From: a virus
Lineage: Duplodnaviria; Heunggongvirae; Uroviricota; Caudoviricetes
DNA: 64,000 nt
Reading direction: 5' to 3' (one strand)
IMG/VR virus record: IMGVR_UViG_3300009709_000001
Location: 253,336 to 317,335 of that record
This document shows, one piece after another, positions 3,624 to 29,353 of this stretch (position 1 is the first letter of the stretch; each line of letters opens with the position of its first letter). The notes under the pieces were generated by a model that saw nothing but the letters and a program-made list of their open reading frames with translations, ran no database searches and was not told where the DNA came from. Both the position numbers and the translations under genes were made by a program.

Positions 3624-3790
3624 CCGCCTTGGGCCTCGTGATGTGTACTTTTGTAAAGCATTGTAAAGGAACGTAAAGCAGCAAAAAACGGTAGACAGCC
3701 CCTCGCGATTCTGATATAGTACATACATGGACAGCAAACAAGCAAACAACAAAGGCAAGCGCGCTGTTCATAGCGCTTACGCAACAAATC

Positions 3791-3834
3791 TTTACAATGT
3801 AACGGTTGACAGCAGCAGCGCAAACGGTTACTAT
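3791..3834 (+). promoter_or_regulatory. divergent sigma70 promoter with box
   Basis: TTTACAATGTAAC-gg-TTGACA-N17-TACTAT. Confidence 0.8.
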
Positions 3835-3871
3835 ATAGACACTTCCAACCCACAGTGCAAAGGAGCACAAA

Positions 3872-4429
3872 ATGGCAGACAAAGGAATCCGTCCCGAAGC
3901 CCTCCGTAAGTTCCTGCAGGACCTCCCGTCCCGCGAGAACACTCGCCTGGGCAACCGCAACTTCCGTGCAGGCGTCATCACGCACCTGATGGAACAGTTC
4001 AAGATCCCGCTGCACAGCGCGGCGACAGCGTACAACAACGCTTTCATCGCTGCGCGCGAGATGGCGGCGGGCAACGTCGAGAAGAAGATCGAGCCCAACG
4101 CGGAACTGGCAGCGCAGCTGGTGGGCCTGGGCCGCCCCGAGGACAAGAAGGGGGGCCGCAAGAAGAAGGCGGTTGCTCCGGCAGCGACCCCGGGCACGCC
4201 CGAGGTGGGCGGTGCGGCAAGTGACGTGCTGTCCAGCAACATCCTGGGCAGCGGCGAAGACGAGGGCGACGGCGACGAAACGCCCCCGACAGCCAAGGTG
4301 AAGGTCATCCAGCGCAACGGCAAGGCGGGGCCCTGGGAATTCGACGACGAGGCGGCCGCCCAGGAGTTCCTGGGCGAGAACACCGGCAAGGTGGGCCAGC
4401 CCAAGATGTTCATCGAAGGCAAGGAGTAA
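3872..4429 (+). CDS. putative helical DNA-binding protein, SAATxYN paralog family
   Basis: AGGAG RBS; FRxxV...SAATAYN...LGRPEDKKGGRK shared with 41152, 47651, 35969. Confidence 0.75.
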   Translation: MADKGIRPEALRKFLQDLPSRENTRLGNRNFRAGVITHLMEQFKIPLHSAATAYNNAFIAAREMAAGNVEKKIEPNAELAAQLVGLGRPEDKKGGRKKKAVAPAATPGTPEVGGAASDVLSSNILGSGEDEGDGDETPPTAKVKVIQRNGKAGPWEFDDEAAAQEFLGENTGKVGQPKMFIEGKE

Positions 4430-4436
4430 TCCGGAA

Positions 4437-4455
4437 GGGGGCGAAAGCCCCTTTT
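4437..4455 (+). terminator. intrinsic terminator
   Basis: GGGGC-GAAA-GCCCC-TTTT. Confidence 0.8.
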
Positions 4456-4481
4456 CGTTTGGCCGAAAAAAGGAGATCGAG

Positions 4482-4700
4482 ATGGCAAGCGCCGTTTATG
4501 AAGTTGACCACGAAACCCGTCTGGTTATGCCAGACACGGATTGGTCTTGCCAAGTCCTCGGCAAGATCGTGCAGCAGGGCCACGCGGTAATCAAGGTCGG
4601 AGAATCCCCCGAGTTGGTTGCCCGTGTGGAACGGGAGCGCACGCAAGCTGAACTCGACCGCCGGGACATCCTTGTCGCTGGCACGGGCATCGCACCCTAG
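4482..4700 (+). CDS. hypothetical protein
   Basis: AGGAG RBS. Confidence 0.75.
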   Translation: MASAVYEVDHETRLVMPDTDWSCQVLGKIVQQGHAVIKVGESPELVARVERERTQAELDRRDILVAGTGIAP

Positions 4701-5165
4701 GTCGGTTTTCAACGCAAGAAGGGCACTCCAGGTGCCCTATTCTCACGAGTAGATTGTCGGCAGTGAATAAGACAGTTTGGTGTCTTAGGCCGAGTAATAT
4801 GTTATGCCGATCTACTTTGCGACGCTTGCAATGTTTCTATTCTTGAAAGATTGCAGTGGCACCAACCTGTGCACAGGTCTTACCCTCAGATCACAAATCA
4901 AACAGCTCCATTGTTTCGATTGTCCTCGTATGCGAGGCAGAGCCCATGATTAGACCTGGTTGTTCATCTAGGATAGCTACCTATGCGGCTACACTAGGCA
5001 TTGCGAGGCAGGATTAGCCGAAAAAGGTGGAATCTAAAGAGCTGTCTCGCGTTTGAAGGTGCAGGTGCAGGTGACAGGCTTGCGTCAGAACCTGTCGCAA
5101 ATTTCCAATTTTGATTTCCAAATCTGAATTGGAAACCTAAAAAGGAAAATTGGGCCTGTTAGTTG

Positions 5166-5390
5166 CTACGAGCCCTCTGAGTCATAGCGGCCAAGCAACT
5201 CGTTAGTATCCGGCGGTTTGCATGCGCTGCAGGGGCTGTCCTTGTACTGCCGATCCTGCTGTGCAAACACGCGGTTAGCGTAGCACATAAGCAACACCAT
5301 ACCGAAGCTGATGATGGCTCCACCCGTAGCACCAATACCGATGCCGAAGATACCCATCACACAGAAGAGATACATGAAGAACTTAATCAT
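5166..5390 (-). CDS. small membrane protein
   Basis: Two hydrophobic segments; start MIKFFMY. Confidence 0.7.
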   Translation of the reverse strand: MIKFFMYLFCVMGIFGIGIGATGGAIISFGMVLLMCYANRVFAQQDRQYKDSPCSACKPPDTNELLGRYDSEGS

Positions 5391-5613
5391 GGTTGCCCTT
5401 GACAACTTCGATGTCAGCGACGTTGGAATAGATCCAGCAGACAGCGCCGATGCATGCCAACGTGTTCGCAAGCGGAACCACACTCCAGAAAATGGTCCAG
5501 ATGATGTTTGCCACTGTGAGGCTGTCGCCTTTCTTAATTGCGAACATCCAAGCAATGGGAACCAGCACGGCGTACAGTGCAATGCACAGCAGGTATAATT
5601 CAATCGGGCCCAT
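5383..5613 (-). CDS. small membrane protein, PxxN family
   Basis: TM segments, VPLANT motif. Confidence 0.7.
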   Translation of the reverse strand: MGPIELYLLCIALYAVLVPIAWMFAIKKGDSLTVANIIWTIFWSVVPLANTLACIGAVCWIYSNVADIEVVKGNHD

Positions 5614-5658
5614 AGCAGTCCTTTCTTACTGCTATTGTACGCGCTGGGCCAAAGGCTG

Positions 5659-5952
5659 TCAATCCCTCAGCCGCAGTTTGTGAAGATCGATGCTGCGACA
5701 CACCATCTGGTTGTGCATCTCCCTTGCGGTGTGGCATGCCCTGTAGAAGTTTTCGTTGTTATCCGGACTCACATGGATGGTGTAGTGTCCAAAGGGATTC
5801 TGCCCCAGGTCACCCTTGTCTTCACAGATGAGGATGCCGTGGCACACATGGGAACTCTCGTTCCACTCCACTTCGACACCGTTCTTGAAGTCCGGGTCGT
5901 ACATGCGGCGGACTTCAAATTTGGAGACAGTCTCGACAATGGTTGCCATCAC
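5659..5952 (-). CDS. hypothetical protein
   Basis: ATGA-coupled operon. Confidence 0.75.
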   Translation of the reverse strand: MMATIVETVSKFEVRRMYDPDFKNGVEVEWNESSHVCHGILICEDKGDLGQNPFGHYTIHVSPDNNENFYRACHTAREMHNQMVCRSIDLHKLRLRD

Positions 5953-6311
5953 ACTTCCTTCCAGAACCAGGGTTGAATGATCTGTCCGGCACCGCTATAG
6001 CATTCATAGAGGTGCCGTGCTTGCTGCACTTTGATGCCGCGCAGTGCCTGCGTCACCGCATCACGGGCTTCCTTGCTGGTTGCCGACCAGGAGATCTCCC
6101 ACAGGGTATCCGAAAGCCAGTAGTCCCAGCGGCAGATGTCCCAGCCCGGGAAGTCCTGTAAGCAATCGACCGCATCCCACAGACGGATGCCATCAATGTT
6201 CTGGTCGTCGTGGTGTGCAACATTGAGCACGAGCTTGCCATGCCAATTGTGGTGCGACAGGTCCTTGAGTTCCACACAAGGCCAGTCTTCTTCGAGCTCA
6301 GCGGTTGTCAT
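5949..6311 (-). CDS. hypothetical protein
   Basis: ATGA-coupled operon. Confidence 0.75.
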   Translation of the reverse strand: MTTAELEEDWPCVELKDLSHHNWHGKLVLNVAHHDDQNIDGIRLWDAVDCLQDFPGWDICRWDYWLSDTLWEISWSATSKEARDAVTQALRGIKVQQARHLYECYSGAGQIIQPWFWKEV

Positions 6312-6595
6312 GGCTTGCGAAGCTCCTCTTCGAATTGTTCCCAGACGGCCTGTTCATTGCCGCACACTTCGGCGAACAGCATGTTCAGAACTTCGGTCAT
6401 GGCATCCGGGCTGTGCCCCAGCATGCGTTGAGTAGCTGCGATGAAGCCCTCGATGTCATCGGACATCAGGTAGCTGCGCATCGCCTCGCAATGCTGCACC
6501 ATGCTCAACGTGCCATCCTGGCCCCAAAGTGCTTTGGTATCCTGAATGTGCAAACGGACTTTGGTGAGCGCTTGGTTAACGCTATCGACTGACAT
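6308..6595 (-). CDS. hypothetical protein (MSVDSVNQ...)
   Basis: AAGGAG RBS; promoter TTGACA-N17-CATAAT. Confidence 0.75.
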   Translation of the reverse strand: MSVDSVNQALTKVRLHIQDTKALWGQDGTLSMVQHCEAMRSYLMSDDIEGFIAATQRMLGHSPDAMTEVLNMLFAEVCGNEQAVWEQFEEELRKP

Positions 6596-6654
6596 TAGGT
6601 GCTCCTTGCTGCTATGTAGAACATTATGCAGCAAAGGACCGGTCATGTCAACAG

Positions 6655-6963
6655 TTACTTGAAGGCCGATTCCCGCAGCACCACGCAGAAGGAGCGCTTG
6701 CAGCATGCCCAGTAGGGACCCTCGATGAAGTATCCCCCGAGGTAGGCAGCACCGTAATGCTTCTTCAATGCGGCGTCCAACTTCTTCTGCTTTTCTTGCG
6801 TGGCTTCCCACACATCGTCAGCCAGCCAGAGTTTCAGGCGCCGTTGACCATTCTTCCGCAGATGCGTGAAGGTCACGCGGGCATATTGACCCGATGTCTT
6901 GGGGTTGAAACCAGCTTCCTTCATGGCAGTCATGAGTGGCGCCTTGTAGTTCATCCTTGCCAT
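6655..6963 (-). CDS. hypothetical protein
   Basis: AAGGAG RBS. Confidence 0.75.
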   Translation of the reverse strand: MARMNYKAPLMTAMKEAGFNPKTSGQYARVTFTHLRKNGQRRLKLWLADDVWEATQEKQKKLDAALKKHYGAAYLGGYFIEGPYWACCKRSFCVVLRESAFK

Positions 6964-7021
6964 AACCTGCTCCTTGTTGCTATGTCTACATTATGCAGCT
7001 ATTGCAACGGACATACGACCG

Positions 7022-7168
7022 TTAAATGGAGACCAGCTCCGACCAATTGCGAGTGAAACCCTTCCTGTATTCTCGCCATTCTTGTGAATAGCAAGTGTAG
7101 GGATTAGCATATAATCCCAGCTTGGCATCTGCCTTGCCAAGGTTGTACGCATGATCATTTCGTGGCAT
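7022..7168 (-). CDS. hypothetical protein (MPRNDHAYNLG...)
   Basis: Internal start of track ORF. Confidence 0.55.
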   Translation of the reverse strand: MPRNDHAYNLGKADAKLGLYANPYTCYSQEWREYRKGFTRNWSELVSI

Positions 7169-7487
7169 CAGCGAACCAAACGTAGGCACCAGCCATGAAC
7201 AGCATCGAATCCCACGTCGGCTTGTCTTCGTCGTGGTCCATGTGCTGGTCGTAGTGGTCCTCCTGGATGAGGAGAAGATCGCGCAGGCCTTGACCTTCAC
7301 CCGGCTCGCACTCGTCGAAGCTCGTGGTGATGTCCGTACATCCGTTCCAGATGTATTCGTCGAACATGCGTGCGATCTCTTTTCGACCCGCACTATAGTC
7401 GACGCCCTTATCCATGTTCTGGAGGCATTCGATGATGTAGTCAGCCTCCTGTAGTGCATCCTGCGAGGGCGTATAGTCGTCAGACAT
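7155..7487 (-). CDS. acidic hypothetical protein
   Basis: AGGAG RBS, start MSDDYTP. Confidence 0.7.
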   Translation of the reverse strand: MSDDYTPSQDALQEADYIIECLQNMDKGVDYSAGRKEIARMFDEYIWNGCTDITTSFDECEPGEGQGLRDLLLIQEDHYDQHMDHDEDKPTWDSMLFMAGAYVWFADATK

Positions 7488-7494
7488 AGGGCTC

Positions 7495-7710
7495 CTAGTT
7501 ATGACGGCAAAGCTCTTGGGAGCCGAAGCCGTACTTCTGTTTGATGCGACAGAACAGATCCGAATCGATATGTACTGCACCCTTTTCGTCGGTCCACGCC
7601 ATAACGAAAACGGTTGCGTGCTTGTTCCGTTCCATGCTAGTGACAGACACAGCGGTCAACCGCAGCTTGCCTGCACCCGTCTCTTCGGGCTTGAGATTGA
7701 GGATGCTCAT
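7495..7710 (-). CDS. hypothetical protein (MSILNLKP...)
   Basis: Operonic. Confidence 0.65.
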   Translation of the reverse strand: MSILNLKPEETGAGKLRLTAVSVTSMERNKHATVFVMAWTDEKGAVHIDSDLFCRIKQKYGFGSQELCRHN

Positions 7711-7894
7711 TGCAACCTCAGCTGGCCGCCGTCGTAGAAAGCCGCCTTGGTGATCTCCACCGTCGGTGGCCCGCCTTGTCGGCACAGTAGTAGACGCGAA
7801 CCTGGTGGCCGCAGCGGCGAGCTTCGGCTACCGGCGCATCGGCCTCCTGCTGGGGGACCTTCAACGTCAGGACAGCGGTACCACTTGCAATCAT
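7707..7894 (-). pseudogene. small ORF with apparent 1-nt deletion (~7770)
   Basis: 188 nt from ATG to TGA; adding one base gives a 62-aa ORF; possible sequencing error. Confidence 0.45.
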
Positions 7895-7903
7895 TTTCGA
7901 CTC

Positions 7904-8215
7904 CTACAGAAACGGTCGGACAAACTTGTCAATGAGAAACTCTTTGGCAGCATGCTCCGACTTGAAGACCTGGCTGCCTTTTGCAACCATTGCTCGTATG
8001 CTAGTCTGCCATGACACTAGTATAAAGTTAGGGCTATACACCCGTATAGAGCCATCCAGAATAGCGGGCCGGGAATACGAAACTTCCCAGAAAGCTTTTC
8101 CATTCGCCTCAGCCTTTGTTACAGTGCCACCAAAGGGATTCGTCAACCCACCAAAGATCACCGTATCCGCTAGATTAATAGCAACCTGCTGTCGTGGTGA
8201 GATGGGCTCTTGCAT
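7904..8215 (-). CDS. hypothetical protein
   Basis: Promoter TTGACC-N17-CATAAT at ~8223-8251. Confidence 0.75.
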   Translation of the reverse strand: MQEPISPRQQVAINLADTVIFGGLTNPFGGTVTKAEANGKAFWEVSYSRPAILDGSIRVYSPNFILVSWQTSIRAMVAKGSQVFKSEHAAKEFLIDKFVRPFL

Positions 8216-9208: not shown

Positions 9209-9466
9209 TTAAACGGACGAATTCAAAGCTTTACAGCATCTGGGTTTATCATGTTTCGACCATGTCAAGAGATTTGCATAGAACAGCGGAATCCCACCTT
9301 TTACTATAATAACAGTTTTTTCTTGTAAAGGTAAATCATACCCGTTATCAATGAAGAACTTATCTGGAATTATGTGATACAGTATCACATAATCATATTC
9401 TGTCATAGTGTATTCAACTATGTCGTATTTCAGCTTTAGGAAGAGCTTATCTTCTGTTGAGATCAT
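9209..9466 (-). CDS. LKY-array paralog 25
   Basis: MISTEDKLFLKLKY. Confidence 0.85.
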   Translation of the reverse strand: MISTEDKLFLKLKYDIVEYTMTEYDYVILYHIIPDKFFIDNGYDLPLQEKTVIIVKGGIPLFYANLLTWSKHDKPRCCKALNSSV

Positions 9467-9695
9467 ATTGGTGAAGATTGGTGAAGAAATCTGCGAGATT
9501 AGGTATGTAGTTATAATCTATCTGAATAAGAATATCAGACACACCGAATATACTCGTGTAATTATGCATAGTGAAAAACTCTTCGGGTATTGAATGACCG
9601 ATGTTGAGTAGCCACAAATTTAAGTAGTCGTCTACACTTGTTTCTACTATACTGTATTTCAGCTTTAGGTAAACTTTATCTTCAGTGCTGATCAT
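9447..9695 (-). CDS. LKY-array paralog 24
   Basis: MISTEDKVYLKLKY. Confidence 0.85.
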   Translation of the reverse strand: MISTEDKVYLKLKYSIVETSVDDYLNLWLLNIGHSIPEEFFTMHNYTSIFGVSDILIQIDYNYIPNLADFFTNLHQYDLNRR

Positions 9696-9907
9696 AGAGT
9701 CCTTTCATACATAACCAATATCCTGTACAGTTCGCATTCGAATTCTTCTACAGTGCGGAAGTTAGGAGAACACACTGCTTGCCATATTTCCATATAGACA
9801 TTTTCTGGAACTAGGTGACGAAATATGGCAAGATCTGTTCTAATAGAACATCCGGACCAGGCGGGATACTTCAGTTTGACGTGCAGGAGTTCTTCAGCGC
9901 TGATCAT
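9692..9907 (-). CDS. LKY-array paralog 23
   Basis: MISAEELLHVKLKY. Confidence 0.85.
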   Translation of the reverse strand: MISAEELLHVKLKYPAWSGCSIRTDLAIFRHLVPENVYMEIWQAVCSPNFRTVEEFECELYRILVMYERTL

Positions 9908-10035
9908 ATTCTTGTAGGGCTGCGTAGAGTTGGTTTAGATTCTATAGCTGCTGTGAAGATGACTTGGTAGTCATTCACTATAGGTTTACTGAGTTTATAC
10001 TTCAGTGTTATCAACAGTTTGTCTTCGCTGTTCAT
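9894..10035 (-). pseudogene. short, frameshifted LKY-array paralog 22
   Basis: MNSEDKLLITLKY...; C-terminal LYAALQEYD lies in another frame. Confidence 0.6.
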
Positions 10036-10279
10036 ATTCGAGAATGTCTGTTAGTAGTTCATTGTACTCGTGTTCGTGATACCATTCATTTCTTGATAGA
10101 CTTACACCTATATCGGGATTGGCCGGGTCTTGGTAGTCTACCACTGTTATGTTGGTATAACCTTTAGCCTTTAAGAAGAAGAATAATCCGGCATCGTACT
10201 TAATGAAGGCGGTCCGGGTCCTACTGAAGATTTCTGCATTGTACTTCAGTGTTATGAACAGCTTATCTTCTGGATTCAT
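9995..10279 (-). CDS. LKY-array paralog 21
   Basis: MNPEDKLFITLKY. Confidence 0.85.
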   Translation of the reverse strand: MNPEDKLFITLKYNAEIFSRTRTAFIKYDAGLFFFLKAKGYTNITVVDYQDPANPDIGVSLSRNEWYHEHEYNELLTDILEYEQRRQTVDNTEV

Positions 10280-10508
10280 AGTCGGCTAGGTCAGCCATCA
10301 ATATGCACATGAACTCGAGTGTATCGTAGTAGTCATAAAACCTATTCCTAGTTTTTAGTTGGCCGTGAAGTGTGTATGCATAATCGATTAGGAACTCATC
10401 GGGTAACGACATCATGGACTTTGGATAACGATCGAACATGCCGAGTTGGAATCTCTTTTCGGGTAGGTTGTATTTTAACCTAATGAATAGTTCATCTTCG
10501 TTGTTCAT
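10263..10508 (-). CDS. LKY-array paralog 20
   Basis: MNNEDELFIRLKY. Confidence 0.85.
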   Translation of the reverse strand: MNNEDELFIRLKYNLPEKRFQLGMFDRYPKSMMSLPDEFLIDYAYTLHGQLKTRNRFYDYYDTLEFMCILMADLADYESRR

Positions 10509-10761
10509 GATTTGGCTCCAGTTCCATTAGTATATTCGATAATGCTTCAAGTGCTTCTTCGGGTTTATCGCTGTAGATTTGAAGTAGTTGAATTCCGGGT
10601 TCGCCTGTGCTGAAGGTGTATACTCTGAAGTTCTCGTGTGTGTAGTGACCGATATATTCGGCTTGTTCTTCGGTTACATAACACACAACTTTTCGTAAGA
10701 GGTTAGTTTTTATACCGATGCGGTACTTCAGCGTTAAGTAGAGCTTGTCTTCTGCATCCAT
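10492..10761 (-). CDS. LKY-array paralog 19
   Basis: MDAEDKLYLTLKY. Confidence 0.85.
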   Translation of the reverse strand: MDAEDKLYLTLKYRIGIKTNLLRKVVCYVTEEQAEYIGHYTHENFRVYTFSTGEPGIQLLQIYSDKPEEALEALSNILMELEPNHEQRR

Positions 10762-10982
10762 TCTAGTAAGTCTTTCTTTAGGTGGTACATGAAGTCTAAT
10801 GAGTGGTAGGCATGCCCGGGTCGACTGTTTAATCTAACAAAGGTACTGGTATCGATATATCCGTATTCGAGTAGGAACTCGATAGGTATTTCTCTTGAGT
10901 ACTCAACCCACTGCACATAGTCGGCAAAGTGTACCGGAAGTCTATACTTCAGCTGTAGGTAGGTTTCGTCTTGACTGTTCAT
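10734..10982 (-). CDS. LKY-array paralog 18
   Basis: MNSQDETYLQLKY. Confidence 0.85.
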   Translation of the reverse strand: MNSQDETYLQLKYRLPVHFADYVQWVEYSREIPIEFLLEYGYIDTSTFVRLNSRPGHAYHSLDFMYHLKKDLLEWMQKTSST

Positions 10983-11199
10983 ATCGCATTAGTTGGCTGA
11001 TAAAGTATTCGGTACTAATCTCTTTGTACTTCAGGTTTAACAACACATCGTTGAACATGAAATTATACTCGGCTAGAAAGTCAGGTGGCAGAGATTCGGC
11101 ATAGAGTTTTCTTGCTCTAACTTCTTGTGGTGTAGTCGGGTATGGAGGTGGCATTCCATACTTCAACACTACCATCGATTTGAGTTCAGCATCATCCAT
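10942..11199 (-). CDS. LKY-array paralog 17
   Basis: MDDAELKSMVVLKYG. Confidence 0.85.
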   Translation of the reverse strand: MDDAELKSMVVLKYGMPPPYPTTPQEVRARKLYAESLPPDFLAEYNFMFNDVLLNLKYKEISTEYFISQLMRYEQSRRNLPTAEV

Positions 11200-11420
11200 G
11201 TTGCTAGGTGTTCGATTAGTTCTTCTGGTGTTAGATAATGATGTTCGTAGTCTTCATCCATCATTGAATATCCGAAGTGTGATGTGCTTAGTCTTAGATC
11301 GTGTCGGAATGCTATTGGCAGGTTGGTTAGATATTCGATACGTTGTCTACGTTCTGGATTGTATTGATCTGGTGGCCATCCGTATTTCAACACTGCAAGG
11401 GTTTTGAATTCTTCTATCAT
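11169..11420 (-). CDS. LKY-array paralog 16
   Basis: MIEEFKTLAVLKYG. Confidence 0.85.
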   Translation of the reverse strand: MIEEFKTLAVLKYGWPPDQYNPERRQRIEYLTNLPIAFRHDLRLSTSHFGYSMMDEDYEHHYLTPEELIEHLATWMMLNSNRW

Positions 11421-11662
11421 TGGTTGACACTGTATTGTGGATTGGCTAGAAGAAACTCTACAAGCTCGTTTTCGAGTTCCGGCCAGGAAGATCTAATTCG
11501 ATATAACTTCACCAATGGAGATTGAGTTTCGCTAGTGTACCTGTATTCTCTGTAGAAGTTAAAACGCCAAGGCTGACGTCCGATCATTTTTAGGAACTCC
11601 CATGAATCGCCGCCAGAGATAAGCTGTAGGCAAGTTCTTAGTTCGGATTCTCGTGTGTCCAT
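11417..11662 (-). CDS. LKY-array paralog 15 (divergent)
   Basis: MDTRESELRTCLQL. Confidence 0.75.
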   Translation of the reverse strand: MDTRESELRTCLQLISGGDSWEFLKMIGRQPWRFNFYREYRYTSETQSPLVKLYRIRSSWPELENELVEFLLANPQYSVNQ

Positions 11663-11898
11663 TTTGTTAACTCATCGATTAGGCGATTGATAAACTCGGG
11701 TGTATCAAACCAAATACCACGAACAATCAATGTTAAGTTACCGTTTGTACCGCAATATCCGTGATCGGTTAAGAACTCCCGCGGTATGCTTTGATACAGT
11801 TTCTGATGCATTGTGTATCCATAAATCCACTCCGGAAACTTTACTCCGTACTTCAGTTCAAGGAAGACTTTGTCAGCTTCAAGTTGTTCGCTGTTCAT
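11638..11898 (-). CDS. LKY-array paralog 14
   Basis: EADKVFLELKYG. Confidence 0.85.
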   Translation of the reverse strand: MNSEQLEADKVFLELKYGVKFPEWIYGYTMHQKLYQSIPREFLTDHGYCGTNGNLTLIVRGIWFDTPEFINRLIDELTKWTHENPN

Positions 11899-12145
11899 AT
11901 TCTAAGAGGTGATAGCACAATTTATCAAATCGGATGCTTCCGTCAACGTAGACACCAATATCAATTTCAGGTCCGATTCCGATAACGGATTGAACAAGCA
12001 TTACAAGCATTCCGTGATCAACTAACCATTCGTACAGTGAATCCCTGTCGGCAGTATTGAGGTAAACCCATTTGTGATTAGGGAACCTTTCTATCCTATA
12101 CTTGAGTGTAAGATATAGTCGGTTCATTTCGGATATATTGCTCAT
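11879..12145 (-). CDS. LKY-array paralog 13
   Basis: EMNRLYLTLKY. Confidence 0.85.
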   Translation of the reverse strand: MSNISEMNRLYLTLKYRIERFPNHKWVYLNTADRDSLYEWLVDHGMLVMLVQSVIGIGPEIDIGVYVDGSIRFDKLCYHLLEYEQRTT

Positions 12146-12383
12146 AGTATAGAAACTGTTTGAAGAATCTTAGCTTTGAATTATTGTCAGGACAAACCAT
12201 CAATTCGATCTTGTTGTATGTGCCGAATTTGAATGTGCGAAAGTCTTCGGGAAATATCTGAACATCAATAACACTCCCATCAAGTATCTCTTTACCGAAG
12301 CGTAGAGTAAGATAGGTGCATTCTTCGTCAGTAACGTCTTCGACGTTAATTTCTACTTTGATCGTATTCAAGGAGTTGGTCAT
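12096..12383 (-). CDS. LKY-array paralog 12
   Basis: DEECTYLTLRFG. Confidence 0.8.
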   Translation of the reverse strand: MTNSLNTIKVEINVEDVTDEECTYLTLRFGKEILDGSVIDVQIFPEDFRTFKFGTYNKIELMVCPDNNSKLRFFKQFLYYEQYIRNEPTISYTQV

Positions 12384-12582
12384 AGAAATGGTCTACTTCA
12401 TTGTCATGAATGATGTACATGGGATGGCACCAAGTATTCGGATAGTTATAGTGGTCAAAGAATTCGAATGGGATTAGGTGCTTGGACAGGAAATGACTGG
12501 TTTCGCGGGAATGCGTTTCTGTATCTTCGAAGTTGATTTTATACTTCAACCGCAAATACATTTTATCTTCACTCTTCATCAT
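12346..12582 (-). CDS. LKY-array paralog 11
   Basis: MMKSEDKMYLRLKY. Confidence 0.85.
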   Translation of the reverse strand: MMKSEDKMYLRLKYKINFEDTETHSRETSHFLSKHLIPFEFFDHYNYPNTWCHPMYIIHDNEVDHFYDQLLEYDQSRN

Positions 12583-12805
12583 ATGTCAGCAATCTGTGTA
12601 TCAAGTCTAATCTTGGACCTTCGGTGAAGAACCACATTACCTCTTCAAAGTCGTAATATCGATCAAAGAATTGTTTCGGAAGTTCTTTGCGCCAAATACC
12701 AGGGGCCTTTCGGAAGTCACGTATACCGTACTTCAACTTAATGAAGATCATATCTTCGTCAGTCGATAGTCGGTACTTGCCCGTTTGTGGATTGATCAAA
12801 CTCAT
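12569..12805 (-). CDS. LKY-array paralog 10
   Basis: DEDMIFIKLKYG. Confidence 0.85.
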   Translation of the reverse strand: MSLINPQTGKYRLSTDEDMIFIKLKYGIRDFRKAPGIWRKELPKQFFDRYYDFEEVMWFFTEGPRLDLIHRLLTYDEE

Positions 12806-12980
12806 AAAGTCTTTGATACAGGTATTCTAGGAACTCTTTGTAATCATCGAAGCGATCGGAAGCGAGTGCCCTGAACATTTCGTTATAGATTTTTGGAGGG
12901 CAGAGCCTTCGGAAATTATCGCCCTTGAGTGGGTTCCCGTATTTTATTTCTAAGTATAATCGGATTTCACTCGTTATCAT
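12759..12980 (-). CDS. LKY-array paralog 9
   Basis: MITSEIRLYLEIKYG. Confidence 0.85.
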   Translation of the reverse strand: MITSEIRLYLEIKYGNPLKGDNFRRLCPPKIYNEMFRALASDRFDDYKEFLEYLYQRLYEFDQSTNGQVPTID

Positions 12981-13284
12981 CGGTGTGTTCTATTGTTAGG
13001 CCTGGATATCCACGTTCTAGATAATAGATGCGAAGCAGACGATCGAGTACCATAAGGCCGGATTGATAATCGATTGCGTATTCTTGACAATACTTGAATG
13101 TCCGCATCATTATCTCTCGTCCACCTTCTGTAGTAGTGTTCGAAGATGCATCCCTGAATACAGTGAGTTCAATGAGTTCGTCCGGCAATGAATCCAGATA
13201 ACCCATAAGGTTTTTCTGCGGATCAGGATGGATCAGCTTGATCATCAACTCTAGTTCTTTGTCTTCTTCTAAGTCGTTGTTCAT
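12967..13284 (-). CDS. LKY-array paralog 8
   Basis: MNNDLEEDKELELMIKLIHPDP; resembles 14003. Confidence 0.75.
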   Translation of the reverse strand: MNNDLEEDKELELMIKLIHPDPQKNLMGYLDSLPDELIELTVFRDASSNTTTEGGREIMMRTFKYCQEYAIDYQSGLMVLDRLLRIYYLERGYPGLTIEHTDDNE

Positions 13285-13522
13285 AATCGAAAATTGCCTT
13301 ATATACGGACTTTGTGGTTCCCCAAGACGGCAGTAACCATCGATAAGGGCCCGGTGCCCACATCGAAGGAGTTTTAAGAAGTTCTCTGAAGCCACACGCC
13401 TCTGGATAGCCTTGTGGGAGATTGGCGAGGTAAACATACCTATCGTGTTCTCCTCTGTTGTAGGAGTAATGTGGTACGGGACCCAGTCTCAGTGCTATCT
13501 CTAATCTGTCTTCTTTTGTCAT
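13223..13522 (-). CDS. LKY-array paralog 7
   Basis: MTKEDRLEIALRLG. Confidence 0.8.
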   Translation of the reverse strand: MTKEDRLEIALRLGPVPHYSYNRGEHDRYVYLANLPQGYPEACGFRELLKTPSMWAPGPYRWLLPSWGTTKSVYKAIFDYEQRLRRRQRTRVDDQADPS

Positions 13523-13754
13523 ATTCGATTAACATCTCGTAGATATATTCTGAATCATAGAATGCACCTGTTGCCCATGTTCGAAATGCAGTTCCCTTGT
13601 CTTCGTTGAGTAAGCCAGATTCGAGCAGAAACTCGGTAGGTAGTCCATACAATGCCTTCAGGCGTTGTCCACTTTTTATTTCCGGCACATAATATTTCAA
13701 CTGGATCGCTGTTATCTCTTCAGCTGTCGGACTTATTTTCTTTTCTTCGGTCAT
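13440..13754 (-). CDS. LKY-array paralog 6
   Basis: AEEITAIQLKY. Confidence 0.8.
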   Translation of the reverse strand: MTEEKKISPTAEEITAIQLKYYVPEIKSGQRLKALYGLPTEFLLESGLLNEDKGTAFRTWATGAFYDSEYIYEMLIEYDKRRQIRDSTETGSRTTLLLQQRRTR

Positions 13755-13998
13755 ACGCAAGTAGGTTTTCCATGAATTCGGGAAAGAACTTTTCAATATT
13801 CTTTTGCACGTAATCGTCCACCTCTGGTACGATGTCATAGTATCCGGGTGTCACTGAAGGTCGTATGTATCCGTGATAGATGAGGAAACCTAATGGCAAG
13901 TGTTCACACTCTATACGGACGCGCGGAGACCGATTGTTGTCAACAGTCAGGAAGACATTGTACTTCAGCTTCAGGTATAGTGTATCTTCGGGGCTCAT
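13720..13998 (-). CDS. LKY-array paralog 5
   Basis: MSPEDTLYLKLKY. Confidence 0.85.
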   Translation of the reverse strand: MSPEDTLYLKLKYNVFLTVDNNRSPRVRIECEHLPLGFLIYHGYIRPSVTPGYYDIVPEVDDYVQKNIEKFFPEFMENLLAYDRRKENKSDS

Positions 13999-14002
13999 AA
14001 CC

Positions 14003-14263
14003 TTATTCGTACTTCATGAATTCTAGATTGATTATGTGGTTGAGTGTGATTTGGATGAATGGTTGTCGTACCTGTTCAAACATATCGTATTGGATCACAA
14101 TCGATCTTACGGTAGTTTCGTAATCATCCCTTAATATCGGACTATGTATCAAATCTAGTGCCGATTGTGGAAGACTACGGATATATCCTTCGAAGTCAAC
14201 AAATGGATCCGGATGACTTAACCGTATGAATAGTTCTATTTCTCTTCTTTGCTCTGGGGTCAC
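14003..14263 (-). CDS. LKY-array paralog 4
   Basis: EIELFIRLSHPDP. Confidence 0.8.
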   Translation of the reverse strand: MTPEQRREIELFIRLSHPDPFVDFEGYIRSLPQSALDLIHSPILRDDYETTVRSIVIQYDMFEQVRQPFIQITLNHIINLEFMKYE

Positions 14264-14514
14264 AATTCACAACCATTTTCGAAATTGATTAGTTGCAGGA
14301 GCATCCATTCGTAATCTTCCTGAAGAAGCGCCCAAGCTTTGCTAACCTTATGGTGTAGACGAAATTCCAGAGGTAGGCGATTAAAGAATTCAACTACTGG
14401 AACCCACATCATTTCATCGGGCAACGGACCGTATCGAAGTTCTAGATAGGTGCGATCTTCATCCCTCAATTCTTTGATCAAGAAGGTCTCGGTGCATCTC
14501 GACTTCGTATTCAT
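14260..14514 (-). CDS. LKY-array paralog 3
   Basis: DEDRTYLELRYG. Confidence 0.85.
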   Translation of the reverse strand: MNTKSRCTETFLIKELRDEDRTYLELRYGPLPDEMMWVPVVEFFNRLPLEFRLHHKVSKAWALLQEDYEWMLLQLINFENGCEL

Positions 14515-14764
14515 TCAAGTCCTTAATCAATCGTTCGATGAATTCTTCTTCGTCCACGTTCATACCGTGAATGTGATGCCCTTTGGTCAGCACTACCGGT
14601 TTCTCTAGATAGGTTCTTACTTCGGATGCATATCCGTACAACAAACGAAACTCTTCCGGTAACTTCTTAGCATACTCTAGCCAAGTTTCCGGAACGAAAG
14701 TCTTTGGCAGTTGCCCGTATCTTAGTTCAACATACAGGCGGTCTTTGGTATCAGCTCGGAACAT
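14459..14764 (-). CDS. LKY-array paralog 2
   Basis: DTKDRLYVELRYG. Confidence 0.85.
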   Translation of the reverse strand: MFRADTKDRLYVELRYGQLPKTFVPETWLEYAKKLPEEFRLLYGYASEVRTYLEKPVVLTKGHHIHGMNVDEEEFIERLIKDLNEYEVEMHRDLLDQRIEG

Positions 14765-15011
14765 ATACTGTCAACTCCTTGGCCATTCTTCTTGCGAAGT
14801 GAAGATTTGTGAATCGTAACCCACGATTGATATACTGGAGGTTAGTCTTACCGTCCGGTGCCTCCACCCAGTATCGAAATTTGATGTTAAAGTCACGCGG
14901 TAAGGACATCGTGAATTTATGATATTCAGTCGCATTGTCAAACCGCTCTGGCATCTCGACACCATATCGAAGTTTTATTATTACTTTTTCTTCGCCATTT
15001 ATCGGCTTCAT
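14751..15011 (-). CDS. LKY-array paralog 1
   Basis: EEKVIIKLRYG. Confidence 0.85.
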   Translation of the reverse strand: MKPINGEEKVIIKLRYGVEMPERFDNATEYHKFTMSLPRDFNIKFRYWVEAPDGKTNLQYINRGLRFTNLHFARRMAKELTVYVPS

Positions 15012-16074: not shown

Positions 16075-16335
16075 TTAACTTATTCCGTATCGTCCAAAAT
16101 ATTCGGACAGATCGTCCATCAATTCCCAGTCAGTTACTTGATCAATTTTTCTTGACCAGTCCCATTTATTATCTTTCTGGACGTATTCGCGATACTTGTA
16201 TCTAATTAGAAAGTCGTCCGGAAATTGGGTAAGGTAGGCCGTTCTCGCGTACCAGCCTTCCCATCCAGTCAACTTACCCATTGGTGGATGACCGTACTTT
16301 AGGACAATGATTGTTTCAATTTCCGGCACGGACAT
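16075..16335 (-). CDS. LKY-family protein
   Basis: MSVPEIETIIVLKYG. Confidence 0.8.
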   Translation of the reverse strand: MSVPEIETIIVLKYGHPPMGKLTGWEGWYARTAYLTQFPDDFLIRYKYREYVQKDNKWDWSRKIDQVTDWELMDDLSEYFGRYGIS

Positions 16336-16521
16336 ATTTGTATAATTCGTCTTCGACAAGCATCTTGGTAGTTGCCTTTATCCAGAATCCATCGGTGTAG
16401 TTGAACATCTCTTTGAATTTGTCCGGCAGGCCTAGAATAAATGCAGCACGCTCGACCCTGTCAGCGGGCACTGGCCCAAACGTAATTTTACCAGCGTCTG
16501 GATTTCTTTTATGGATGACAT
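16316..16521 (-). pseudogene. LKY-family ORF with apparent 1-nt homopolymer deletion (~16478)
   Basis: 206 nt; adding one T gives MSSIKEIQTLVKLRFGPVP... Confidence 0.55.
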
Positions 16522-16711
16522 ATAGGAAAAGGGCTTTTGATAGCCCTTAGTTTAACACAGCTGGATAGAAACTCTCAACTTGAGCGCACAGCCCAAGCAC
16601 GCAAACAACCTAGAAATCAAGCACTAAATTGCACGGAAAAACGCAAATGCAGCACTGGAAAAGTGCTGCACAGGGTCTGGGCTTGCGTGCTTTTGCACGC
16701 GCTGCAATGTT

Positions 16712-16879
16712 TCAGAGCTTAACCAGATGCAGGAGTTGTCCGGCAACGTTCCAGCAGGCCAAGCACATCAGATGAATGATGATAACACGGCCCGCATAGG
16801 TGACTTTGCCCCACCTGAAGAAAGCGCCGACAACCATTGCTGTGATGAACAATGTGAAGACTACATGGAGCGTGAACAT
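16712..16879 (-). CDS. small membrane protein
   Basis: Hydrophobic; promoter upstream. Confidence 0.6.
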   Translation of the reverse strand: MFTLHVVFTLFITAMVVGAFFRWGKVTYAGRVIIIHLMCLACWNVAGQLLHLVKL

Positions 16880-16954
16880 TTCAATCATCCTCAAAATTGC
16901 GATGGACAAATAGTAACAGGAGCCGAAGCCCCTGTCAACCACGTTGCGAAGCGT

Positions 16955-17548
16955 TTAGTGCTTCGTGCCGTCGCCACCAAAGGCGCGCAGATCGAAGTTG
17001 CCGTCGCCAGGCTTCACGTCGGCGGTGTTGTGTTCGACACCAGGCCCGGGAGGGAGGCCGTCGATCTCGGCCGGCAAGTTGTCGAGGTTGCCCAGGACCT
17101 TCACCTGCACGTGGTCGGGGATACCGAGGGCCTGCCGGAGTGCCGCTTCGATGCCGGCCGCGGGCTTCGGCGCGTAAGGGCCAGTCTTCATCATACGGTG
17201 CACGGCGTCGTCGTACTGTTCCTTGGTGCCGCCGGGGATGTTGCGTTCCAGGGACTTGCGGATGCTGGCCGCCACCATGGCTTCCATCTCCTCGCGCGGC
17301 GGCGGGTTGTCGCTTTCCATCAGGTCGTTGATGCGGACCATTTCGCGGGTGGATTCCTGCATGTGCGCGGGCAGCAGATGGCAGTAGGTCTTGCCGATGT
17401 AGTACATTGACGGCAGTTCACGGAACTGGGCCGCCATCATGTAGGCCTCCGCCAGTGCCGCCGGCCCGTGTTCGGCCAGGTCGTCGATGAGCATCTTGGA
17501 CACGGTGTCCATCATCTCGCTGAGTTTCGGTCGACGTTGCGTTTCCAT
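16955..17548 (-). CDS. hypothetical protein (GC-rich)
   Basis: GGAGG RBS; promoter TTGACA-N17-CATAAT. Confidence 0.85.
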   Translation of the reverse strand: METQRRPKLSEMMDTVSKMLIDDLAEHGPAALAEAYMMAAQFRELPSMYYIGKTYCHLLPAHMQESTREMVRINDLMESDNPPPREEMEAMVAASIRKSLERNIPGGTKEQYDDAVHRMMKTGPYAPKPAAGIEAALRQALGIPDHVQVKVLGNLDNLPAEIDGLPPGPGVEHNTADVKPGDGNFDLRAFGGDGTKH

Positions 17549-17627
17549 GGTTAAAGCCTCCTTGGCTTTGCGTTGATCGTGCTCTAATTATGTGGCAGGG
17601 CACGTGGTCTGTCAACAGATTATTGAA

Positions 17628-18188
17628 TTAGTATTGCGACAGAATATCGTCGATTCTTTTTTGTCTTTTCTGATAATGGACGATAATAGCACCGATTTGG
17701 ACTCTCTCAACATGCAAGGGATCTTTCTTTCGACCCCTCTGTGTCTCGGAAGATTTTCTTTTCTGTTCTTCGGTTCTGTGTAATCCAGTTCTCGATGCCG
17801 ACATCTTAGCGCGTGTCGAATCCTTTGTTGCCACCCTTCTCAATTGGGACTCGGAGTTCTTTTTCTTGCGGGCCTCGCTATGTGGAACTTTTCTTGCATC
17901 GGACATTCTTCTTTTAATCCATCCGAATAATTTATTGTTTGTTCTTGTGCCATCACCGGACTGTGTCATTAGCATGGCAGCATAAACCAATTTTGGATTA
18001 TCTGGGTGCATTCTGACAAGAAGCTGATGTGCAAGATAATGCTCTTCGGGCGTAAGACGAACAATGTTTATCTTATCATCATTGCCACCCATGCACTTAG
18101 GAATAATGTGGTGGCGTTCCGTATACTCGGATATTGTTCTATATTTTGCGCGATAGATAAGGCAGTAGTAGATGAATTCGTATTTCAT
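17628..18188 (-). CDS. free-standing HNH homing endonuclease with NUMOD3-like tail
   Basis: ERHHIIPKCMGG...LTPEEHYLAH; HSE..K..S repeats. Confidence 0.85.
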   Translation of the reverse strand: MKYEFIYYCLIYRAKYRTISEYTERHHIIPKCMGGNDDKINIVRLTPEEHYLAHQLLVRMHPDNPKLVYAAMLMTQSGDGTRTNNKLFGWIKRRMSDARKVPHSEARKKKNSESQLRRVATKDSTRAKMSASRTGLHRTEEQKRKSSETQRGRKKDPLHVERVQIGAIIVHYQKRQKRIDDILSQY

Positions 18189-18199
18189 CCACTATTTAC

Positions 18200-19072
18200 T
18201 CAGAAACTTGCAGGTATCCCGATTTTTCCGCAATTAGCCTTATACGTTCCACGGGCCAGCTGGCGATCGTAGCCGTTCACACGCATCATTTCGGCAATGA
18301 TCTGTTCGTATGTCTTACCGGAATGAAACCAGTGATAGATGATCTTTCGGCTAATGGAGGCCTTGCTTTCACCGGTATTGATAGAAACTGCAGGACCGGA
18401 GGCCGAGGGGGATGGTCGTACAGTAGCAGGGCGCACTACAGGCGCAATCTGTCCAACGCTTGCAGGGGCTGTAACCGTGCTTGCAGCGCGTTTTCCAACA
18501 AACGGCCCCTGCTTTTGTGCCAACGTATGACCGTCGACACCCACAATGTAATACGTGGAACCCGGCAACACCGAACCCCAGCTTGCCTTCGTGTAATCCA
18601 ACGGAATACCGACTGCAAGCTTTGCATGCCACTTTTCATTCAGTCGCACAGTCTTACCGGTTGTGGTAACATATTCGAACGTGCGGCCCTTTCCGTGCAC
18701 CGTTTCTTGAGTGTGAAGACGTGCCCCAGTTCCACCGAGTGCCCTGCAAACCGAATACCAGCCTGCATCATGGCCGTATCCCAGTTCCGGCCGCATATCA
18801 CAAACGATATGTGCAACTTCATGCGGCAGGGTTTCGTTGATCATTTCATCGGGATTCCGATGAAGCATATCTCGGTTGAACTTGACCTTTGCCCACAGGA
18901 CTTCTCCTGCGTCATTCTTCCTCGTAAGTGCCCATCCGGCCACCCGACCACGAAGATTGAAGCTCACCTCCATATTGGAGAGGTCGACCTGATATGCGCG
19001 CTTGACGGTTTCGACAAGCTCCTTGAAGCGTGCAAGGAGACGTTGTTCCGGAGTTTGGGTGGTCTGCATCAT
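18200..19072 (-). CDS. SprT-like Zn metalloprotease with C-terminal helical DNA-binding-like module
   Basis: LRGRVAG, TLPHEVAH (HExxH), GHDAGW. Confidence 0.85.
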   Translation of the reverse strand: MMQTTQTPEQRLLARFKELVETVKRAYQVDLSNMEVSFNLRGRVAGWALTRKNDAGEVLWAKVKFNRDMLHRNPDEMINETLPHEVAHIVCDMRPELGYGHDAGWYSVCRALGGTGARLHTQETVHGKGRTFEYVTTTGKTVRLNEKWHAKLAVGIPLDYTKASWGSVLPGSTYYIVGVDGHTLAQKQGPFVGKRAASTVTAPASVGQIAPVVRPATVRPSPSASGPAVSINTGESKASISRKIIYHWFHSGKTYEQIIAEMMRVNGYDRQLARGTYKANCGKIGIPASF

Positions 19073-19374
19073 GCTTCCTTCAGGCCTTCGACCTCGCAGG
19101 AGTTGTCATCTTCACCGTGCGAAATACGAGTGAATTCGGCTGCAATCCATTCTTGCATGGGCAGCACGGGCTTCGGACGCATGCCACGGAACTGGCTGTC
19201 GTACCAGTCGTTCTTCAGGACTTCCATCGGGCTGTCCATCCGTTCGATGATGATCACGCAGCTATGGAATCCATGCACACCGGAATGCTGCATCACAGTC
19301 ACTGCCATTTCACGGTCCCAGAACATATACTGCTGGTTTGCTGAAATGTGAATTTGGTTAGGCTTAACAATCAT
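19069..19374 (-). CDS. hypothetical protein
   Basis: AGGAG RBS, promoter upstream. Confidence 0.7.
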   Translation of the reverse strand: MIVKPNQIHISANQQYMFWDREMAVTVMQHSGVHGFHSCVIIIERMDSPMEVLKNDWYDSQFRGMRPKPVLPMQEWIAAEFTRISHGEDDNSCEVEGLKEA

Positions 19375-19511
19375 GTTCTCAACTCCTGCTTGCGATGTAT
19401 GTATTATGTGCAAATGGTCGGAAATGGTCAATACCTGATTTCACAAAAGGCGAAAAGGACCGCACGGATCCTTTTCGCGAATCGAACGCATCCCCGTGGA
19501 CTGCGTGTCGA

Positions 19512-19988
19512 TTACTCGGCCTTGGCGTCGGCGGCCGGGGCAGCAGCGCCGCCTTCGGTGGTCGAAGCAGCCGGGGCCTCGGCCTTCTTGGTCGGCTTCT
19601 TGCCTTCGATCGGGGCAGCGACACCCTTGTCGGCGACCTTGGGCTGGTTGGCCTTGTAGGTGCCGCGCGCCAGCTGGCGGTCGTAGCCGTTCACGGTGAT
19701 CATCTCGGCGATGATCTTCTCGTACAGGGCCGTGGCGTCCAGGCGCTCGCCTTCGGGCAGGGCGTTGTTGGCTTCGGTCAGCGACACCATGATGCCGCGG
19801 GACTTGTCGGCCTTCGACTGGGGCTTCGGCTCGGCCTTGGGCTTCTCGACGGCCGTCACGGTCAGACCGCCGGTGGCGCTGGCGTCGGTGGAAACGGTGG
19901 GCTCGACGACGGTGCTGTCATTGGCGAAGCGGGTCAGCGACGTGGCAGCCAGCGTGGCGAGGGCGAGGGAGGTGTGGAGCTTCTTCAT
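19512..19988 (-). CDS. Ala/Lys-rich protein sharing the C-terminal module of the SprT gene
   Basis: YEKIIAEMITVNGYDRQLARGTYKAN; very GC3-rich. Confidence 0.85.
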   Translation of the reverse strand: MKKLHTSLALATLAATSLTRFANDSTVVEPTVSTDASATGGLTVTAVEKPKAEPKPQSKADKSRGIMVSLTEANNALPEGERLDATALYEKIIAEMITVNGYDRQLARGTYKANQPKVADKGVAAPIEGKKPTKKAEAPAASTTEGGAAAPAADAKAE

Positions 19989-20153
19989 AGCGATTCCTTA
20001 GCGGAAGAGTTTGGCCAAAATCGGCCGGGGCATCACGACGCACCATGCGTCGAGAATCGGTTACAACTTACTTGGCGCTTTGTTTGTTGCGGCGCTTTGT
20101 TTGTTGCGATGTCTGTATTATGTCTGCTCTGCTGGACGACGTCAACTGTTTTT

Positions 20154-29095: not shown

Positions 29096-29353
29096 CTATT
29101 CGTCAAGCAGATCAGCGTGGTAGCAATAGAAGGCGGCCTCCAATGTCCGATATGCATTATCTCGATTAGCCGGCTGCTTTAGCATGATAGCGATATACAA
29201 TCGCTTCGCACTCATGCTCTTCGTTGTAGGTGTGAGTATATGTGCGGTGACATTGATCACTTCATCGGGTAACAAGTTCACGAACTCCAGTTTACCTTCC
29301 ATGAAGAATGGATACTTCAGTCTATAGAATATTTCAGTTTCGTTGTCCATCAT
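29096..29353 (-). CDS. LKY-family protein
   Basis: MMDNETEIFYRLKYP. Confidence 0.8.
   Translation of the reverse strand: MMDNETEIFYRLKYPFFMEGKLEFVNLLPDEVINVTAHILTPTTKSMSAKRLYIAIMLKQPANRDNAYRTLEAAFYCYHADLLDE

Follow-up and report, generated by a model that had tools for sequence, protein, structure and literature searches.

The stretch of DNA analysed here, called the window below, comprises 64,000 nucleotides (nt; bases 253336–317335) of the IMG/VR record IMGVR_UViG_3300009709_000001, which is 385,394 bp long and has direct terminal repeats. On its minus strand, at positions 9209–15011, the window carries an array of 25 consecutive, co-oriented, head-to-tail genes with products of 43–105 amino acids (aa), just as a preliminary description made from the letters had counted them, the truncated copy being the one at 9904–10035. 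Judged by their sequences, the array genes are full-length paralogs of one domain of approximately 80 aa and not strangers that carry a common N-terminal tag. The array was shown to represent the lineage-specific expansion of a single small globular domain that is new and of which approximately 27 copies are present in the genome. The novelty lies in the family, in its predicted fold, which is unmatched, and in the conserved chaining of its genes by nested start codons. The genome that hosts the array is, on sequence grounds, that of an uncultured jumbo phage and a kin of the PA5oct/RaK2/Phosso group: its major capsid protein is of T4 type (Pfam Gp23, E 6e-78), and the closest nucleotide neighbours of the capsid gene are Sinorhizobium phage Phosso (75%) and the Pseudomonas PA5oct group (71%), followed by RaK2-like jumbo phages.

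In 20 of the 25 array genes, as against 30 of the 1499 other open reading frames (ORFs) of the genome, the core motif L-[KR]-[YF] is found among the first 30 residues; the remaining five array genes carry the motif variants LIH, LSH, LRL, IKY, and LQL. The literal N-terminal pattern of the preliminary description, ending in G or P, fits only two of the 25 genes, and its statement that the paralogs share this motif only has to be abandoned, as all-against-all BLASTP of the array proteins gave 32 pairs with an expectation value (E) below 1e-3, many of which span 70–90 residues at 25–35% identity. Because profiles that contain the query are circular, membership was retested with leave-one-out profiles and with a profile built solely of foreign proteins. 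In these tests 18 array genes reached E < 1e-3 and three more were marginal; the marginal gene at 9692 has a pairwise E of 3e-8 to 12759–12980. The genes at 12967 and 14003 form the “H-P-D-P” subfamily (mutual pairwise E 1.4e-8), which is linked to the main family by hhalign profile-profile comparison with 88% probability and E 2.8e-6 over 74 columns. By such non-circular sequence tests 23 of the 25 array genes, including the 43-aa remnant, were shown to be homologous, and the mutual profile similarity expected of a single family was thereby found. The genes at 11417 and 12096 gave no significant match in the non-circular profiles and fit the family by motif, position, or family-guided model only; 12096 is graded as a probable member and 11417 as either very divergent or unrelated.

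An iterated search over all six-frame ORFs of the genome converged on 27 members, namely 24 array genes, the copy at 16075, the marginal one at 29096, and a solid solo copy outside the window (genome positions 171967–172203); the profile matches in the own genome amount to 27-28 in 385 kb. From the six further members that had been suggested outside the array, 16075 proved solid and 16316 belongs to the family in frameshifted form; 29096 is a marginal case, the resemblance of 28393 and 28611 is limited to the first-helix motif, and 29334 is not significant by profile. The ORF that occupies 29334–29921 (minus strand, 195 aa) resembles two fused family-like units in one frame, each with an N-terminal helix motif and a P-x-E-F/M-like turn, and neither unit is significant by profile. 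The other small-gene clusters of the window (45790–62079) were not drawn in by the iterated profile search.

Conservation, computed over 68 distinct members, defines three anchor blocks. The first is the N-terminal helix ending in L-K-Y-G (E7, D8, L10, Y11, I12, L14, K15, Y16, and G17), the second is the L-P-x-E/D-F turn (L35, P36, E/D38, and F39) followed by Y43, G44, and Y45, and the third is the C-terminal helix ending in L-x-E-Y-E/D (L69, L73, E75, Y76, and E/D77). Thus the central LP.EF motif and the C-terminal helix motif noticed earlier hold up as consensus columns (L-P-x-E/D-F and L-x-x-x-L-x-E-Y-E/D). Columns 18–34 and 46–68 carry less than 1 bit each and accept insertions of up to 8 and 18 residues, respectively. 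The AlphaFold2 model of the 86-aa product of 11638–11898, built on a 54-sequence alignment, has a predicted local distance difference test score (pLDDT) of 94.6 and a predicted template modelling score (pTM) of 0.83, with predicted helices at residues 3–17, 27–37, 40–45, and 67–83, the last two of which are separated by a small beta element. According to this model the conserved frame of first helix, L-P-x-E/D-F turn, and last helix would be the scaffold of one compact domain. The earlier image of a constant handle with a variable body is therefore kept as regards the three anchor blocks and the two hypervariable segments, but the supposed handle is the first helix of the domain itself. The homodimer prediction score was 0.00, which counts neither for nor against dimerisation. 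The array proteins have a median isoelectric point (pI) of 5.2, only three of the 25 are basic, the grand average of hydropathy is negative in nearly all of them (hydrophilic overall), and each contains 0–3 cysteines without paired Cys motifs.

Searches of known families and structures gave no explanation of this domain. No member had a significant match in Pfam-A, PHROGs v4, or PADLOC 2.0, the family profile matched none of the PDB sequences, and no Pfam family recurs across 54 members. Foldseek found nothing below E 0.9 in PDB and BFVD, and VIA-align over 48,161 chains stayed at noise level both for the main model (best Z 4.3, Hec1 CH domain) and for the model of the 11417 product (best Z 5.7, CENP-N pyrin-like domain, with several death-fold rows). 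A language-model look-alike search returned no usable match. In ESM Atlas the main model reached at best a template modelling score (TM) of 0.50 to a KilAC/ANT antirepressor cluster, which is a weak lead, and the second model gave nothing consistent. A missing match does not prove a new fold, yet nothing known explains the predicted domain, and the profile and fold searches agree with the earlier opinion that the family was undescribed.

These searches bear on the idea of an immunity repertoire, in which each paralog neutralises a different toxin or abortive-infection effector as in bacterial polyimmunity loci. Such a role would suit small, diverged paralogs that are soluble, mildly acidic, and arranged in tandem, since tandem arrays of diverged paralogs thought to bind many partners are a known hallmark of immunity loci (PMC3113570, PMC3482391), and a low-quality ESM Atlas model gave a TM of 0.49 to an SMI1/KNR4 (SUKH) cluster. 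However, no match to SUKH or any other immunity family of Pfam was obtained, the high-confidence AlphaFold2 model matches no such fold, and no toxin gene was recognised among the scanned neighbours, most of which are unknowns. Neither a sequence relation nor a reliable fold relation to polyimmunity loci was recognised, the array differs from them in being phage-borne and in its nested-start overlaps, and an immunity function is considered decidedly unlikely.

A regulatory or nucleoid-associated role, as proposed for the zinc-ribbon copies of Bacillus phage G, is highly improbable. The precedent itself is of comparable scale, as that phage encodes approximately 35 zinc-ribbon proteins, an expansion of a small domain which was called “unprecedented” and whose members were interpreted as transcription factors or as proteins that bind DNA (Iyer et al. 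2021, PMC7824862), and in both cases one small domain is present in dozens of copies (27 here) in a single jumbo phage, with function being inferred. In contrast to phage G, the array described here has no zinc ribbon, its few cysteines being unpatterned, and consists of chained overlapping genes for acidic proteins; neither the low pI nor the small number of basic members favours a nucleic acid ligand, and no helix-turn-helix or zinc-ribbon match was found by sequence or fold.

The array is the distal part of an operon that starts with a frameshifted first copy (16521–16316) and continues with the copy at 16075, four membrane paralogs (16057–15108), and the 25 array genes. At 23 of the 24 array junctions the genes overlap, with the start codon of the next gene placed inside the preceding one, and one junction is non-overlapping. 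The most common form is TATGAN (13 of 24), in which the ATG lies within upstream Tyr-Glu/Asp(/Val) codons, and the other types are xAT-GAA (n = 2), xxA-TGG (n = 3), GAT-GAT (n = 1), and the ATGA stop/start (n = 4). For example, the common tail Y-E-Q-R-R is read from the same DNA as M-N-S-E-D of the next gene, and the frequent endings in T-E-V before the stop codon are the other-frame reading of L-K-Y of the next gene. Because the DNA of the tail also encodes the conserved N-terminus of the following protein, part of the “conserved C-terminus” is a by-product, and annotators should treat tail endings of Q-R-R type with caution, as these are partly the mere other-frame image of the downstream N-terminus. 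Since the starts are nested in upstream genes and motifs of Shine-Dalgarno type are rare (before five of the 25 array genes versus 47% of crudely called long ORFs), the chained genes are probably translated by coupling or re-initiation.

The first 42–55 nt of the genes make up a direct-repeat family with 60–81% identity. The preliminary description had seen neither DNA-level repeats nor cassette sites; the former do exist, whereas the latter part of the statement stands, as the repeats are coding sequence. They are the likely substrate of the unequal crossing-over that built the array. In the first family gene the ATG at 16521 opens a 29-aa frame, which contains the N-terminal helix motif and ends at 16432, and the rest of the domain follows in the −1 frame (16471–16316). 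The shift site T_TTG_GGC at 16480–16474 fits the X_XXY_YYZ pattern of −1 slippery sequences, and a −1 slip gives L-R-L-G-P-V-P, as in the gene 13223–13522, while the counterpart in a relative (L005, 7827–8084) is intact in a single frame. Either programmed frameshifting or a one-base deletion would account for this gene.

The only upstream intergenic space holds a sigma-70-like box (16578–16549) directly before the first family gene, and further down the operon there is no room for an intergenic promoter. By consensus match only, the array appears to lie in one operon behind this promoter candidate, and no T4-type TATAAATA late box was found near the array. Short array pieces with 100% identity were found in an RNA (metatranscriptome) library of another study; because such a library can contain DNA, they give a weak hint of array expression.

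The promoter region is also relevant to the proposal, made in the preliminary description among others, that the N-terminal motif is a common virion sorting signal. In this case the paralogs would be internal or ejected virion proteins, and the motif, like the T4 capsid targeting sequence, would load them into the head for injection. The T4 targeting peptide ends at a gp21 prohead-protease site of (L/I)-x-E type. In the array proteins no conserved [LIV]-x-E site follows the motif, and most members have none in their first 30 residues. The T4-type major capsid protein of the phage speaks for the proposal, as does the example of the T-even internal proteins IPI, IPII, and IPIII of the polymorphic ip locus, which are small, highly diverse defence proteins acting against host defences and having only the capsid targeting sequence in common (PMC3012670). 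Nevertheless, the common part of those proteins is a short cleavable peptide, whereas here homology extends over the full length and the motif forms part of the fold, being a helix of a domain modelled with high confidence. Moreover, the array is located approximately 78 kb from the capsid gene, its upstream box is sigma-70-like, and a run of 25 probably coupled genes in an early-looking operon is unlike the ip genes. Two features that define such a sorting signal are thus lacking, and a virion role is seen as very unlikely.

The distribution of the family was established by a full HMMER scan of 1.84 billion protein cluster representatives, which yielded 47 proteins, including 30 foreign small metagenomic proteins of 73–125 aa with the same anchors. 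One further candidate, a protein of 2933 aa (P0033), was rejected as spurious, being a repeat protein with unrelated domains. Clear one-to-one foreign relatives exist for two copies only (56% and 41% identity), the others being at approximately 30%, compared with approximately 50% for the neighbouring SprT. Nucleotide and protein searches of the array against the phage collection gave no matches, a word-based protein search recovered almost nothing, and no longer or fused forms of the family were found when searched for. A scan of IMG/VR and JGI metagenome contigs with the N-terminal pattern gave no confirmed locus, which is a weak negative because one divergent member was used for confirmation. 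No profile match at E ≤ 0.01 was obtained in five cultured relatives, namely PA5oct, Phosso, XbC2, RaK2, and Kaldavass. That the family is confined to one lineage is a solid conclusion. A moss-metagenome run contains DNA of the phage and may be the source of the assembly.

The gene order was compared between the window and related loci. In L001 the order is SprT, RadC, two copies, membrane proteins, and the array up to the contig end, and in L005 and L008 it is SprT, RadC, three copies, four membrane paralogs, and 13-14 copies, with Tyr-Asp/Glu-nested starts and the H-P-D-P subfamily being present as well. On a 4.2-kb foreign contig overlapping small genes run around the family match. The succession of membrane paralogs and array is thus kept in three divergent lineages, and SprT and RadC were read upstream in two of them. 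The copy number varies between related phages, as 27 copies are present here and 16-17 in one relative, and the comparison of copy number proposed at the outset therefore gave a difference. A seeming difference in gene content among L001, L002, and L003 was discarded as a gene-calling artefact, the DNA being identical. In the window the SprT-like and RadC genes, 2–4 kb upstream, are the nearest enzymes. RiPP-like or radical-SAM arrays of tagged substrates combine a short, nearly invariant tag with a conserved modifying enzyme next to it; here the motif is a structural helix, and the scanned genes included none of radical-SAM type. Genes of SprT-like and RadC type often accompany conflict genes of mobile elements. 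The four membrane paralogs have no Pfam or PHROG match. Close to the array, an approximately 90–150 bp module of the SprT-like gene end recurs in the adjoining gene, in this phage as well as in the relative, with 75–83% nucleotide identity across phages (L001 2796–2947 versus window 18209–18367 and 19638–19724).

The conserved neighbourhood is of importance for the main rival to the binder repertoire preferred below, namely that the frame docks all paralogs on one shared phage component, the paralogs being adaptors, substrates, or regulators. The obvious candidates for such a partner are the four co-transcribed small membrane proteins, followed by the upstream peptidases of SprT-like or RadC type. 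Proteins with a joint function are typically translated in a coupled way, which is counted in favour of a shared partner, along with the conserved polar positions within the anchors, the joint maintenance of membrane paralogs and array in three lineages, and the presence of SprT and RadC in two. On the other hand, the synteny may be merely inherited, because all three lineages are relatives, and hydrophobic or aromatic residues predominate among the conserved positions, as in a fold core. Docking on one partner is on balance unlikely.

The age and selection of the copies were estimated from two strains of a related phage (L008 and L009), whose nine array genes differ by 66 synonymous and 60 non-synonymous changes. 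The ratio of non-synonymous to synonymous substitution rates (dN/dS) is 0.21 for the array and 0.17 for the flanks, and the synonymous divergence is approximately 3-fold higher in the array (0.14 versus 0.05), which suggests older alleles or recombination. The divergence between these strains is a mosaic, in which long stretches of 100% identity alternate with blocks of 87–96%, and the array region contains an 18-nt indel. In the genome studied here adjacent copies show no greater similarity to each other than copies lying far apart (permutation p 0.30). Because of the low dN/dS and the lack of excess similarity between neighbours, the copies are old and individually maintained under purifying selection; they are neither a recent amplification nor decaying junk. 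Recent tandem duplication (“accordion”) was considered and rejected on the grounds of the same comparison of neighbouring with distant copies. Tandem paralogs with strain-variable copy number that act on host responses are known in eukaryotic viruses as the MGF110/360/505 multigene families of African swine fever virus and the gene “accordions” of poxviruses; the array has no homology to them, and its copies are ancient and individually conserved and not recently amplified.

The same data disfavour a functionless by-product, that is, an old decaying run of unequal-crossover duplicates. One truncated copy (9904–10035), one frameshifted copy (16316–16521), and one barely recognisable copy (11417–11662) could be taken as signs of decay, but at least 22 copies are intact, with full-length frames at 25–35% identity, purifying selection acts between strains, and divergent relatives have retained both the family and its layout. 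This possibility is scarcely credible.

As a whole, the chained expansion of one domain is best explained as an early cytoplasmic binder repertoire for host takeover or counter-defence, a preference which is tentative and falls somewhat short of an even chance. The proteins would be soluble, mildly acidic cytoplasmic factors made early, each paralog would bind a different host protein or a different defence or toxin component through its variable segments, and the array would be a host-takeover or counter-defence repertoire on one scaffold. This reading is favoured because of the scaffold-plus-variable design, the fast divergence in comparison with neighbouring genes, the variable copy number, and the sigma-70-like promoter, together with the setting among small unknown genes near SprT-like and RadC genes and the analogy to T-even internal proteins and to polyimmunity loci (PMC3012670, PMC3113570). 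The anti-defence or host-targeting repertoire suggested in the preliminary description would be compatible with all observations.

Several facts weigh against the binder repertoire. None of the five cultured phages has a homolog, and no defence or anti-defence family was matched. An arms race might be expected to leave pervasive diversifying selection on such a repertoire, of which the gene-wide dN/dS of 0.21 gives no sign, the promoter is a consensus match only, and the conserved polar residues E7, D8, K15, and Y16 would equally suit one shared partner. The most specific form of the repertoire, a hard-wired binder library of approximately 25 co-translated paralogs with one stable scaffold, two hypervariable segments, and a different host target each, is correspondingly doubtful, though arguable. 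Its targets would be defence effectors, toxins, or housekeeping hubs, and the nested-start chain would ensure joint production of the whole set from one early transcript.

The coordinates of the operon and of the possible distant member are collected in the table.

Table. Features of the array region in window coordinates; paired E values refer to the leave-one-out/foreign-only profiles.
Feature	Position	Strand	Evidence
Sigma-70-like promoter candidate	16549..16578	-	TTGAGA, 18 nt, TAAACT, TG before -10; consensus match only
First family gene, frameshifted	16316..16521	-	Direct sequence reading; body against L-P-x-x-F region by hhalign, P 7.8e-4
Family member upstream of membrane-protein genes, 86 aa from ATG 16335	16075..16335	-	E 7e-9 / 3e-10
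Four small paralogous membrane-protein genes, 84, 59, 83, 88 aa	15108..16057	-	Between leading copies and array
Array gene 25, first transcribed, 86 aa	14751..15011	-	Foreign-only E 5e-12
Array gene 24, 101 aa	14459..14764	-	E 7e-12 / 5e-13
Array gene 23, 84 aa	14260..14514	-	E 3.5e-7 / 2.6e-5
Array gene 22, 86 aa, GTG start, H-P-D-P subfamily	14003..14263	-	Pairwise E 1.4e-8 to 12967; hhalign E 2.8e-6
Array gene 21, 92 aa	13720..13998	-	E 4e-9 / 2e-12
Array gene 20, 104 aa from internal ATG	13440..13754	-	E 5e-6 / 7.5e-8
Array gene 19, 99 aa	13223..13522	-	Marginal, foreign-only E 0.004; every anchor present
Array gene 18, 105 aa from internal ATG, H-P-D-P subfamily	12967..13284	-	Pairwise and profile-profile
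Array gene 17, 73 aa	12759..12980	-	E 3e-4 / 1e-6
Array gene 16, 78 aa	12569..12805	-	E 5e-4 / 2.5e-7
Array gene 15, 78 aa	12346..12582	-	E 4e-11 / 6e-10
Array gene 14, 95 aa, probable member	12096..12383	-	All anchor motifs; not significant non-circularly
Array gene 13, 88 aa	11879..12145	-	Marginal, E 0.014 / 0.004
Array gene 12, 86 aa, modelled member	11638..11898	-	E 6e-9 / 8.5e-14; AlphaFold2 pLDDT 94.6, pTM 0.83
Array gene 11, 81 aa, very divergent or unrelated	11417..11662	-	AlphaFold2 with family alignment compatible, pLDDT 83
Array gene 10, 83 aa	11169..11420	-	E 2e-4 / 8.5e-8
Array gene 9, 85 aa	10942..11199	-	E 5e-11 / 4.5e-12; nearest foreign protein P0018, 41% identical
Array gene 8, 82 aa	10734..10982	-	E 6e-13 / 2e-15
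Array gene 7, 89 aa	10492..10761	-	E 1.7e-4 / 1.6e-3
Array gene 6, 81 aa	10263..10508	-	E 1e-12 / 7e-19
Array gene 5, 94 aa	9995..10279	-	E 2e-9 / 5e-13
Array gene 4, 43-aa remnant, first helix only	9904..10035	-	Foreign-only E 2.6e-5, N-terminal positions
Array gene 3, 71 aa	9692..9907	-	Pairwise E 3e-8 to 12759-12980; profile E 0.009
Array gene 2, 82 aa	9447..9695	-	E 1.6e-8 / 1.3e-10; nearest foreign protein P0024, 56% identical
Array gene 1, last transcribed, 85 aa	9209..9466	-	E 1e-11 / 1.4e-9
Possible distant member	29096..29353	-	Full profile E 9e-4; leave-one-out 0.006

The G+C content of the array (41-42%) is close to the genome mean of 43.3%, and the two flanks of the array, at window positions 1–8000 and about 16700–28000, are GC-rich (51–58%). 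The assumption that the array is a low-GC “island” was accordingly ruled out, the flanks being the outliers. Elsewhere in the window, the gene at 38829–39617 (plus strand) belongs to a dispersed family of approximately 24 copies genome-wide, which are probably homing endonucleases, because this copy carries NUMOD3 motifs. The 658-aa product of the gene at 57695–59671 (minus strand) combines AAA with peptidase M41 (FtsH-like) domains, and its counterpart in the PA5oct group is approximately 36% identical across the protease part.

Large expansions of a single small domain are rare in phages, and the array adds to them an undescribed family with a confidently predicted, unmatched domain, the division of its sequence into a conserved frame and hypervariable segments, purifying selection on the copies, and an unusual and conserved way of chaining genes, in which upstream Tyr-Glu/Asp codons provide the start of the next gene. 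If the binder library is true, phages would possess in this array an equivalent of polyimmunity loci and of the multigene families of large eukaryotic viruses, built on an unseen fold. If the paralogs bind different host proteins, new inhibitors of bacterial defences or core machinery could be drawn from a compact family, and the domain would be a natural small binding scaffold.

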